A stretch of DNA of 64,000 bases from Escherichia coli (GTDB lineage Bacteria > Pseudomonadota > Gammaproteobacteria > Enterobacterales > Enterobacteriaceae), in assembly GCF_009931435.1 (NCBI RefSeq), contig NZ_CP043414.1; one strand, written 5' to 3'. This document shows, in pieces, positions 13,642-61,988 of the stretch. Each line of letters begins with the position of its first letter. Within the stretch, counting starts at the first letter, position 1. The notes below the pieces were generated by a model. It did no database searches, was not told where the DNA came from, and worked only from the letters and a program-made list of their open reading frames with translations. The translations under genes were made by a program, and so were the position numbers.

Positions 13642-14946
13642 TTAATGCAACTTCAAACGTGGACGGATAACGCGGTTAATACTCCCCACCAGCATCATTA
13701 ATCCGGTTTTAAAGTAACCATGCAGCGCAATCTGATGCATTCTGTATAGCGAGATGTATACAAAGCGCGCAATTCGTCCTTCAATCATCATTGAGCCGCG
13801 CGTCAGGTTACCCATCAGGCTACCGACGGTGGAGAAGTTCGACAGCGATACCAGAGAACCGTGATCTTTATACTGATAATTTTTCAGCGGCTTACCGTTC
13901 ATCTGCGCCAGAATGTTGTTCATTGCGCAGGTTGCCATCTGGTGTGCGGCCTGCGCACGCGGCGGAACAAAGCCCCCTTCCGGACGCGGGCATGACGCGC
14001 AGTCGCCAATAGCGTATATGTCTGGATCGCGAGTGGTTTGCAGCGTCGGTTCCACCACCAGCTGGTTGATACGGTTGGTTTCAAGACCACCGATATCTTT
14101 CAGGAAGTCTGGCGCTTTGATCCCGGCTGCCCACACCATCAGATCAGCCTCAATATATTCACCATCTTTAGTGTGCAGGCCGCCTTCATCAGCACTGGTG
14201 ACCATGGTTTGCGTCAGCACGCGAACGCCAAGTTTCGTTAACTCATTATGGGCCGCAGCAGAGATACGTGGCGGTAATGCAGGCAAAATACGTTCGCCCG
14301 CTTCTACCAGTGTTACGTTCAGGGCTTCGTTGGTCAGGCCTTTGTAACCATAGCTGTGCAGTTGCTTGACCGCGTTGTGCAATTCTGCGGAGAGTTCTAC
14401 ACCCGTCGCGCCGCCGCCGACAATCGCAATGTTCACTTTACCATTCGCGCCCAGGTTGGCGGAGTATTTCAGGAACAGATTCAGCATCTCCTGATGGAAA
14501 CGACGCGCCTGATGCGGGTTATCGAGGAAAATGCAGTTCTCTTTGACTCCTGGCGTATTGAAATCGTTAGAGGTGCTGCCCAACGCCATTACCAGGGTGT
14601 CATAGGCGATTTTACGTTCCGGAACCAGCAGTTCACCTTTCTCGTCGCGCAGTTCTGCAATAGTGATTGTTTTCGCTTCACGATCGATATCAATGACGGA
14701 ACCCAGCTGGAACTGGAAACCATGATTGCGCGCATGGGCCAGATAGCTCAACGCATCGACGCCTTCATCAAGCGAGCCAGTCGCCACTTCGTGCAGCAGC
14801 GGTTTCCACAAGTGGCTGTGGTTACGATCGACCAGCGTAATTTTGGCTTTTTTCTTGCGTCCCAGCTTATGTCCCAGCTGTGTCGCCATTTCCAGCCCAC
14901 CAGCACCGCCGCCGACAATCACAATTTTTTTCAATGGCGTAGTCAA
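13642..14946 (-). CDS. ndh: Type II NADH:quinone oxidoreductase (NDH-2)
   Basis: Start at TTG 14946 gives [25 protein letters not shown] (434 aa) with two dinucleotide-binding motifs; the track ORF begins 9 codons upstream. Confidence 0.9.
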
Positions 14947-15208
14947 CGTGACCCCCTTAAATTTATTAACCAATTGTTAACTAATGGTTATTAATATAGC
15001 TCTTAATTAACAACAGGTTACAGCAATGAAAATGTTCTTCGTTATTGAGAATAACATGAATGGTGCATTGGTCATACCAAAATTGATGTTAATCAAGTTT
15101 TGTTGCTGAAAAGATAGGCTGATTTACCGGATGAGATCAAAAAATACAGCTTATTGTTTATTATTTAAACGAATTCAGGAGGGTGAGACGTATATGGAGG
15201 GCGTTTGG

Positions 15209-18792: not shown

Positions 18793-19152
18793 TTACAGAC
18801 CTTTATGCGCCAGCATTGGTCCCAGCGGACGGCCACCCAACAAGTGCATATGGATGTGATACACCTCTTGTCCGCCATGGCGATTGGTGTTCATGATCAG
18901 ACGATAGCCATCTTCGGCAATACCTTCTTGCTCAGCAATTTTTGCCGCTACGGTGATCATGCGTCCCAGCGCCTGCTCATGCTCAGCAGACACGTCGTTC
19001 ACAGTCGGAATGAGGATATTTGGAATGATCAGAATATGCGTTGGCGCTTGCGGCGAAATATCGCGAAACGCCGTTACCAGATCATCCTGGTAGACGATAT
19101 CGGAGGGGATCTCACGACGAATAATTTTGCTAAATATAGTTTCTTCTGCCAC
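18793..19152 (-). CDS. hinT: Purine nucleoside phosphoramidase HinT (HIT family)
   Basis: HIT histidine triad HIHMHLL; start at GTG 19152 gives 119 aa ([15 protein letters not shown]...); the track ORF starts 6 codons upstream. Confidence 0.85.
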
Positions 19153-19360
19153 GACATTTTCCTTTTTCAAATAGCCATGCGTTGCGCCATGCTACGCCGC
19201 GCCATACTGCGAGTATAGAGTATGGTCGAGTTAAACCTGCTCTTTCAACCTTAACTCACGATTTCTTAAGCAAAAAATCGTTTTACTGCCGTATATATCG
19301 TCATTATTCCCATTTCTGCCTGCGAATTCGCTGAAAAGACATTCTCTGTTTGGTTTACAC

Positions 19361-19390
19361 GCCAAATATGAATGCGTATATTTCTCATTT
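19361..19390 (+). promoter_or_regulatory. Candidate Fur box in the fhuE promoter
   Basis: AT-rich sequence with partial similarity to the Fur consensus on the bottom strand (aatgagaaatatacgcattc); weak match, supported mainly by fhuE being a known iron-regulated gene. Confidence 0.3.
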
Positions 19391-19485
19391 GCATTTACAT
19401 GCAAAATTATTCGCACACTATATATAACCGCTCATCATCCTCCTCCGGCATGAGCCTGACGACAACATAAACCAAGAGATTTCAA

Positions 19486-21675
19486 ATGCTTTCAACACAA
19501 TTTAACAGGGATAATCAACATCAAACCACCTCCAAACCGTCACTACTCGCCGGTTGCATAGCACTGGCACTCTTACCTTCCGCCGCTTTTGCTGCACCAG
19601 CCACTGAAGAAACGGTGATTGTTGAGGGTTCCGCCACTACTCCAGTTGATGACGAAAATGATTACAGCGTAACGTCTACCTCTGCGGGTACCAAAATGCA
19701 GATGACTCAACGTGATATTCCTCAGTCGGTCACTATTGTTAGTCAGCAGCGGATGGAAGATCAGCAGTTACAAACGCTGGGCGAAGTGATGGAAAACACG
19801 CTGGGGATCAGCAAAAGTCAGGCGGATTCCGATCGTGCTCTTTATTATTCCCGCGGATTCCAGATCGATAACTATATGGTTGATGGTATCCCCACCTATT
19901 TTGAATCGCGCTGGAATCTGGGCGACGCACTTTCTGATATGGCACTGTTTGAACGCGTAGAAGTAGTGCGTGGCGCGACAGGACTCATGACCGGTACGGG
20001 TAATCCATCTGCGGCAATTAATATGGTTCGAAAACACGCGACCAGTCGTGAATTTAAAGGCGATGTCTCGGCAGAATACGGTAGCTGGAACAAAGAACGG
20101 TATGTAGCGGATTTACAAAGTCCACTCACCGAAGATGGTAAAATCCGCGCGCGAATTGTCGGCGGCTACCAGAATAACGACTCATGGCTGGACCGCTACA
20201 ACAGTGAAAAGACCTTCTTCTCCGGCATTGTCGATGCTGATTTAGGCGATCTTACGACGCTTTCAGGCGGTTACGAATATCAGCGCATTGATGTTAATAG
20301 CCCAACCTGGGGCGGTTTACCGCGCTGGAATACTGATGGCAGCAGCAACAGTTACGATCGCGCACGCAGTACCGCACCTGACTGGGCGTACAACGATAAA
20401 GAGATCAACAAGGTCTTTATGACCCTGAAGCAGCGGTTTGCTGATACCTGGCAAGCGACACTGAATGCCACCCACTCCGAAGTCGAATTTGACAGCAAAA
20501 TGATGTATGTCGATGCCTATGTAAACAAAGCGGATGGTATGCTGGTTGGGCCATACAGTAATTATGGACCTGGCTTTGATTATGTCGGCGGCACCGGTTG
20601 GAACAGCGGCAAACGTAAAGTTGATGCGCTGGATTTGTTCGCTGACGGTAGTTATGAATTGTTTGGTCGTCAGCACAATCTCATGTTTGGTGGCAGTTAC
20701 AGCAAACAAAACAATCGTTACTTCAGTTCATGGGCCAACATCTTCCCGGATGAAATTGGCAGTTTCTACAACTTTAATGGCAATTTCCCACAAACCGACT
20801 GGTCACCACAGAGTCTGGCGCAGGACGATACCACACATATGAAATCGTTATATGCTGCCACTCGTGTCACCCTTGCCGATCCGCTGCATCTGATCCTTGG
20901 CGCACGTTATACCAACTGGCGGGTTGATACGCTGACTTACAGCATGGAGAAAAACCACACCACGCCTTATGCTGGTCTGGTGTTTGACATTAATGACAAC
21001 TGGTCGACCTACGCCAGCTATACCTCTATTTTCCAGCCGCAAAATGATCGTGACAGTTCAGGCAAATATCTGGCTCCAATCACCGGTAACAACTACGAGC
21101 TGGGTCTGAAATCGGACTGGATGAATAGCCGTCTGACCACCACGTTAGCCATCTTCCGTATTGAGCAGGATAATGTCGCTCAGTCCACCGGTACACCTAT
21201 CCCCGGCAGCAACGGCGAAACCGCCTATAAAGCGGTGGATGGGACAGTCAGTAAAGGTGTGGAATTTGAACTCAACGGCGCAATTACCGACAACTGGCAG
21301 CTGACGTTTGGCGCAACGCGCTATATTGCAGAAGATAACGAAGGAAACGCCGTTAATCCTAATCTGCCACGCACCACGGTTAAAATGTTCACCAGCTATC
21401 GGTTACCTGTCATGCCAGAGTTGACGGTCGGCGGTGGTGTTAACTGGCAAAATCGCGTGTATACCGACACCGTGACACCGTATGGCACCTTCCGCGCCGA
21501 GCAAGGTAGCTACGCGCTGGTGGATCTCTTCACCCGCTACCAGGTGACGAAAAACTTCTCGTTACAGGGGAACGTCAATAACCTGTTCGACAAAACCTAC
21601 GATACCAACGTGGAAGGTTCTATCGTCTACGGCGCACCGCGTAATTTCAGCATTACCGGCACGTATCAATTCTGA
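19486..21675 (+). CDS. fhuE: TonB-dependent outer-membrane receptor for coprogen/ferric rhodotorulic acid FhuE
   Basis: 729-aa ORF with signal peptide and C-terminal ...TGTYQF terminal aromatic residue. Confidence 0.92.
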   Translation: MLSTQFNRDNQHQTTSKPSLLAGCIALALLPSAAFAAPATEETVIVEGSATTPVDDENDYSVTSTSAGTKMQMTQRDIPQSVTIVSQQRMEDQQLQTLGEVMENTLGISKSQADSDRALYYSRGFQIDNYMVDGIPTYFESRWNLGDALSDMALFERVEVVRGATGLMTGTGNPSAAINMVRKHATSREFKGDVSAEYGSWNKERYVADLQSPLTEDGKIRARIVGGYQNNDSWLDRYNSEKTFFSGIVDADLGDLTTLSGGYEYQRIDVNSPTWGGLPRWNTDGSSNSYDRARSTAPDWAYNDKEINKVFMTLKQRFADTWQATLNATHSEVEFDSKMMYVDAYVNKADGMLVGPYSNYGPGFDYVGGTGWNSGKRKVDALDLFADGSYELFGRQHNLMFGGSYSKQNNRYFSSWANIFPDEIGSFYNFNGNFPQTDWSPQSLAQDDTTHMKSLYAATRVTLADPLHLILGARYTNWRVDTLTYSMEKNHTTPYAGLVFDINDNWSTYASYTSIFQPQNDRDSSGKYLAPITGNNYELGLKSDWMNSRLTTTLAIFRIEQDNVAQSTGTPIPGSNGETAYKAVDGTVSKGVEFELNGAITDNWQLTFGATRYIAEDNEGNAVNPNLPRTTVKMFTSYRLPVMPELTVGGGVNWQNRVYTDTVTPYGTFRAEQGSYALVDLFTRYQVTKNFSLQGNVNNLFDKTYDTNVEGSIVYGAPRNFSITGTYQF

Positions 21676-61727: not shown

Positions 61728-61988
61728 TTTTTCCGCACTGACATAAACTGACAAATATTTAATCTCCCTTTCATTTAGCGTGAAAAATTGAATGAGATTC
61801 TTCCTACCTCTACAGCACTCACCAGACCTTCCAGATGCTGAACCCACTAAACTTATGAAGATTCTTTCATTATTAATTCAAAATTATTGAAATAAAAATA
61901 AATATCATTCAATTTGTTATTTTTGTGTTGCAATTCATTCTCCGACACGCCATTTTCTTTCTCTCGCAAATTCGTTTTGGATGCACTT

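Follow-up and report, generated by a model that had tools for sequence, protein, structure and literature searches.

In Escherichia coli K-12, fhuE is treated in the literature as being under the control of Fur only. A Fur site upstream of the gene was predicted by Chen et al. (2007), with a score of 12.4 bits and a centre at position 1160880 of NC_000913.2. Under iron-replete conditions a Fur ChIP-exo peak, P31, covers positions 1160863–1160895 of the same sequence version; it is intergenic, is assigned to fhuE (PMC10164565) and is credited to Seo et al. (2014) as well (tables of PMC10164565; Gao 2023 pan-regulon). RNA-seq of the K-12 Δfur mutant shows fhuE about 32-fold upregulated (log2 fold change +5.0, p 1.8e-113), and the gene is upregulated in Δfur derivatives of all eight strains with a value, out of nine strains (log2 fold change 3.0–8.4), while expression of the neighboring gene hinT is unchanged (PMC10164565). 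A fusion of the fhuE promoter to lacZ is also repressed by Fur.

Among other Fur operators of K-12, the strong boxes of fhuF, sodA, ryhB and fepB-entC score 19–24 bits in the models described below and carry the canonical left half-site TGATAAT of the Fur consensus (GATAATGATAATCATTATC or TGATAATnATTATCA). The box of the fur promoter, GATAATGCGTATCATTATA, which was mapped by DNase I footprinting, has a below-average matrix score yet is bound. The footprinted tonB operator, GAATATGATTGCTATTTGCATTTAAAATCG, is likewise weak (8–14 bits in these models, 11.5 bits in Chen et al., 2007) and overlaps its promoter. Overlapping Fur sites phased by 6 bp are an architecture described by Chen et al. (2007).

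We analyzed the corresponding locus in a 64-kb stretch of Escherichia DNA, referred to here as the window. The hinT coding sequence lies on the minus strand at 18793–19152, with a GTG start at 19152, and encodes a HIT-family purine nucleoside phosphoramidase, as indicated by a full-length HinT translation match, the HIT domain and the RefSeq annotation. On the plus strand, fhuE occupies 19486–21675 (open reading frame list, Pfam domains and RefSeq annotation) and encodes a TonB-dependent coprogen/rhodotorulic acid receptor of 729 residues, the same length as in K-12. The protein contains the Plug (4e-19) and TonB_dep_Rec_b-barrel (1e-52) domains of Pfam, and its identity is further supported by orthology and by synteny with K-12 in the order ptsG-fhuE-hinT; in the window ptsG is the next gene after fhuE, on the minus strand. 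The initial annotation, made from the sequence alone, had named fhuE as a TonB-dependent siderophore receptor, and the domains and the RefSeq annotation as FhuE agree. A putative Shine-Dalgarno sequence of fhuE, AAGAGA, can be read at 19474–19479 on the plus strand; orthologous upstream regions of other genera have AAGGG at this position. The divergent intergenic region between the two genes is 333 bp long (19153–19485), slightly wider than the 19171–19485 first delimited.

Of 5426 complete E. coli genomes, 5425 gave a match in a megablast search with 19100–19600. RefSeq annotates both fhuE and hinT at every match listed, one partial match listed having hinT only, and the gene product is named ferric-rhodotorulic acid/ferric-coprogen receptor FhuE. 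The window itself belongs to a minority Escherichia lineage: among the 5426 complete genomes, just 1–14 share 99% identity or more with a given sampled segment (about 10–14 for the segments sampled apart from fhuE) and most share 90–97%, and its FhuE is closest to that of Escherichia sp. MOD1-EC7003 (98% identity). Compared with K-12 FhuE, there is a slight difference at the N-terminus.

The intergenic region aligns to positions 1161552–1161884 of K-12 NC_000913.3 with no indels and 11 substitutions (approximately 97% identity), and positions 19363–19399 are identical in the two sequences. We converted coordinates as window position = 19486 − (NC_000913.3 coordinate − 1161551), after shifting published NC_000913.2 coordinates by +777 near 0.6–1.2 Mb and by +1976 or +1977 beyond. 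The +777 offset is supported by other ChIP-exo peaks and footprints that coincide with the matrix sites trained in this study. With this offset and the gap-free alignment, peak P31 projects onto 19365–19397 of the window and the centre of the site of Chen et al. (2007) onto 19380. Because 19363–19399 is identical to K-12, the K-12 binding and expression data can be transferred to the window. Fur occupancy and repression at the window operator are thus supported, by way of the identical K-12 sequence, and the strain would be expected to regulate fhuE as K-12 does. This agrees with the initial proposal that fhuE is Fur-repressed, for which the ChIP-exo peak, the Δfur response and the lacZ fusion all speak in K-12.

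To locate the site by sequence, we trained palindromic Fur weight matrices by iterative best-site refinement on the intergenic regions of 21 well-established K-12 Fur targets other than fhuE (fhuA, fepA-fes, fepD-entS, fepB-entC, fur, fiu, tonB, yncE, sufA, ydiE, cirA, mntH, nrdH, exbB, nfeF-nfeR, feoA, ryhB, sodA, fecA, fecI and fhuF). Three registers were used: the classical 19-mer GATAATGATAATCATTATC, the 7-1-7 15-mer TGATAATnATTATCA and the 7-1-7 motif extended to 19 bp. Chance levels were taken from 5000 dinucleotide shuffles of the region, with a uniform or an AT-rich background. After the shift from NC_000913.2 to NC_000913.3, the sites trained in the classical register fall inside the published footprints (Chen et al., 2007, Table 3), which validates the matrices as well as the conversion of coordinates.

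The best match of the extended 7-1-7 matrix in the region is AATGCGTATATTTCTCATT at 19371–19389, centred at 19380, with a score of 13.6 bits that is reached by 1.9% of shuffles with the uniform and 7% with the AT-rich background. Its centre is the same as that of the site predicted by Chen et al. (2007), and the two scores are nearly equal (13.6 and 12.4 bits). This match ranks third among those of the extended matrix in the whole window and scores below 18 of the 21 leave-one-out training sites. The classical 19-mer matrix gave its best match at 19374–19392 (6.3 bits, reached by 42% of shuffles) and the 15-mer matrix at 19401–19415 (5.9 bits, 46%), with 5.8 bits for 19373–19387, a part of the 19-mer site. 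By these two matrices the region 19153–19485 is indistinguishable from its dinucleotide shuffles; we reject them as adequate detectors and do not count them as evidence against the site. Sequence scoring alone is marginal for the fhuE Fur site.

These results bear out the cautious wording of the initial annotation, which had pointed to a candidate around 19361–19390 as a partial match of uncertain position: the best matrix site and the centre of Chen et al. (2007) both lie within this interval, and the score is low enough, with two types of matrix at chance, that inspection of the sequence alone would leave the position uncertain. The matrix scan that it recommended is marginal with the extended register and at chance with the classical and 15-mer registers. 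It had also taken the lack of a Fur motif above threshold as grounds for refutation, an unsafe rule here, since two of four matrices find nothing above chance at a site that is real. A deeply conserved Fur site that is occupied in vivo in K-12 can score no better than chance when a classical Fur-box matrix is used, and a matrix threshold alone would wrongly reject it. Phylogenetic footprinting and the published ChIP-exo data resolve the site.

The 19-mer lies in a predicted promoter. A consensus scan places the −35 element, TTTACA, at 19354–19359 on the plus strand, within the conserved block TGTTTACA (19352–19359), and the promoter scan places the −10 element, TATATT, at 19377–19382 on the same strand, inside the Fur site. 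Separated by a 17-bp spacer, the two elements make 10 of 12 consensus matches. Transcription of fhuE would then start near 19389–19390; a search of the accessible literature for a mapped fhuE start site found none. A weaker Fur site (6.7 bits) overlaps the primary one with an offset of 6 bp, at 19377–19395, centred at 19386. Jointly, the two sites make up exactly the conserved 25-bp core AATGCGTATATTTCTCATTTGCATT (19371–19395), which is bounded by the inverted repeat AATGC/GCATT. Hexamers resembling ATTATC lie at 19381, 19387 and 19393, so that the core has the 6-bp-phased cluster form mentioned above. The predicted −10 element is contained in the primary site and the inferred start lies at the 3' edge of the core.

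The unusual left half, AATGCGTAT, is common to the fhuE core and the footprinted fur box, and 12 of 19 positions are identical between the two sites; the fur right half is ATTATA versus TTTCTC in fhuE, and the fhuE site runs on into the hexamers ATTTGC and ATTTAC. With the tonB operator, the second Fur site shares the 11-mer ATTTGCATTTA; the tonB operator differs from fhuE in its 5' half and is without the TTCTCA half-site. The sequence TTTCTCATT or TTCTCATT is found in the feoA, exbB, ryhB and fepB regions, TTTCTCATT linking the primary site with the Fur-controlled region of feoA, and ATTTGCATTT is common to the fhuE core and fepA-fes. Among the promoters sharing such words, fur, tonB and fepA-fes have footprinted operators and feoA, exbB and ryhB are ChIP-exo targets. 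With the strong boxes, fhuE has in common the right half-site ATTcTCA, the 6-bp hexamer phasing and probably the class of Fe2+-Fur occlusion of a sigma-70 promoter. Its left half-site, in contrast, is degenerate, TGCGTAT in place of TGATAAT, and it scores 13.6 bits against their 19–24. Relative to the K-12 fhuE promoter, the locus, gene order, site centre and distance of 106 bp to the ATG are all the same.

An ortholog scan with one genome per species yielded 54 fhuE loci, from which 51 distinct upstream regions were aligned. The same 19-mer, or a variant with one to four substitutions such as AATGCGTATATTTCGCATT, AATGAGTATATTTCTCATT, AATGCGTATTATTCTCATT and AATAGTTATTATTCTCATT, is the best upstream match to the Fur matrix in approximately 50 genomes, which represent 17 genera ranging from Escherichia to Rahnella and Pantoea; it is located about 95–166 bp upstream of the fhuE ATG. 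Only two blocks are conserved in the alignment, TGTTTACA and AATGCGTATATTTCTCATTTGCATT, and the flanks cannot be aligned. Per-genus identity to the window across the 17 genera is 0.95 for the 19-mer (19371–19389), 0.89 for 19390–19395 and 0.84 for the −35 block, compared with 0.48 for the spacer (19360–19370) and 0.34 for the flanks. The −35 element is kept at a spacing of 16–18 bp in all genera aligned and the −10 TATATT hardly varies among some 50 orthologous promoters. The trinucleotide GCG at 19374–19376, which departs from the Fur consensus, is near-invariant from Escherichia to Pantoea, and several substitutions in distant genera shift the site towards the consensus (AATGAGTAT, TATTATTCTCATT).

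Based on these observations, we are confident that the Fur operator of fhuE is the core at 19371–19395, lying over the −10 element and the inferred start and corresponding to the documented K-12 site. Part of the conservation of the core must be owed to the −10 hexamer, and one could argue that the core is preserved only as a promoter, Fur acting elsewhere or indirectly. The marginal matrix scores at the core would fit this reading, as would the weak matches at 19399–19417 (5.9 bits) and 19296–19314 (9.1 bits), to which Fur might bind instead. Promoter-only conservation is unlikely, however, since the −10 hexamer accounts for just 6 of the 25 bases that are near-invariant, and since the core, and neither of the two weak matches, is where the ChIP-exo peak falls. 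Neither of these matches is conserved between genera, and the core has 9- to 11-mers in common with footprinted Fur operators; overall we consider the explanation very improbable. The prospect that the resemblance to Fur sites is a chance product of AT-richness, fhuE not being under direct Fur control in this lineage, is close to negligible: two of four matrices do score the region no better than shuffles, but the sequence is identical to one bound experimentally in K-12 and is extremely conserved.

The strong conservation of positions that do not fit the Fur consensus raises the question whether a second protein shares the operator with Fur, reading either the dyad AATGC-N15-GCATT or the downstream palindrome GCAT-N4-ATGC. 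Such a protein would explain why GCG at 19374–19376 and other non-consensus positions are near-invariant across genera. In its favor are also the perfect inverted repeat of 5 bp at the borders of the core and the conservation of GCAT-N4-ATGC in many genera. The GCG-containing half, however, also occurs in the fur box footprinted with Fur (AATGCGTAT); GCG is therefore compatible with Fur binding and a second factor is not needed. The position that does vary shifts towards the Fur consensus, an inverted repeat of only 5 bp could be due to chance, and the K-12 literature has Fur as the sole regulator of fhuE. We regard a second protein as a shade less probable still than conservation of the core as a promoter only. 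A broader idea is that selection holds the operator at sub-optimal Fur affinity, either for derepression earlier than at the genes with strong boxes or for a second factor reading AATGC-N15-GCATT; this is speculative and rather unlikely, though less so than the alternatives above.

Taking the core as the Fur operator, the region can be read as a sigma-70 promoter for fhuE that is overlaid by a Fur operator. In iron-sufficient cells the core, which may be seen as two overlapping 7-1-7 sites 6 bp apart or as a series of ATTATC-like hexamers, would be occupied by Fe2+-Fur dimers. Since the core covers the −10 element and the inferred start, the standard mechanism, promoter occlusion, is the most likely one: bound Fur would keep RNA polymerase away. 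Under iron limitation, Fur would depart and fhuE would be transcribed. The fhuE Fur site is already known, and its recovery in a slightly divergent Escherichia lineage is nothing new in kind; the main value of the analysis is one of annotation, placing the operator at 19371–19395 in the window. Mildly notable are the conservation of the non-consensus bases of the site across families and an additional upstream dyad in many genera other than Escherichia, described below.

Several other elements were found in and around the region. The secondary Fur-like match at 19296–19314, TATCGTCATTATTCCCATT (9.1 bits), is judged non-functional and was rejected as a Fur site, being unconserved beyond Escherichia and outside the ChIP-exo peak. 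A palindrome with a predicted 6-bp stem, TTGCAT-ttac-ATGCAA (19389–19404, plus strand), lies where the fhuE transcript is predicted to begin. Its GCAT-N4-ATGC core is present in many other genera and disrupted in K-12, where positions 19400–19401 read AA instead of the TG of the window. This element might form a stem-loop at the 5' end or belong to an extended operator. In the middle of the untranslated region, at 19430–19455, a hairpin GCTCAT...ATGAGC is predicted; most genera have a similarly placed hairpin of unrelated sequence. A structured 5' UTR or riboregulator at fhuE is unsupported: the UTR has no match in Rfam at E ≤ 1, its folding z score is −1.05 (mean −0.5 over 51 orthologous UTRs), not better than shuffles, and RNAalifold on the MAFFT alignment of the UTRs gave no consensus pairs.

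Elsewhere in the window, the strongest Fur-matrix match is AATAAAAATAAATATCATT at 61891–61909 (21 bits), which falls in the yceJ/yceO/solA region. Since the K-12 ChIP-exo table has no Fur peak near the equivalent position, this match is probably an AT-rich false positive. A cluster of matches of 14.8, 11.7 and 9.3 bits lies in AT-rich sequence upstream of ndh (14917–15043), and the K-12 ChIP-exo table lists no peak at its equivalent. A second K-12 Fur ChIP-exo peak near fhuE, P32 (1161165–1161198), maps to approximately 19062–19095, inside the hinT coding sequence, and is seen under both iron-replete and iron-starved conditions (PMC10164565); by eye, this stretch has no obvious Fur-like sequence. 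For hinT, a promoter-like match on the minus strand at 19219–19248 (TTGAAA, 18-bp spacer, CATACT; 9 of 12 positions) is more than 120 bp away from the Fur core, consistent with hinT not being Fur-regulated.

The additional dyad, TGAAA-N5-TTTCA, occurs in 25 of the 51 fhuE upstream regions, 42–53 bp upstream of the Fur 19-mer and with a variable centre. It is carried by Citrobacter, Kluyvera, Dryocola, Enterobacter, Lelliottia, Huaxiibacter, Silvania and Mangrovibacter, and its centre lies approximately 61–71 bp upstream of the inferred start, a position typical of activators. The dyad is absent from all Escherichia regions aligned, including that of the window, which reads TGAAAAGACATTCTC at about 19331–19347. 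This distribution across the aligned sequences suggests that Escherichia lost the dyad.
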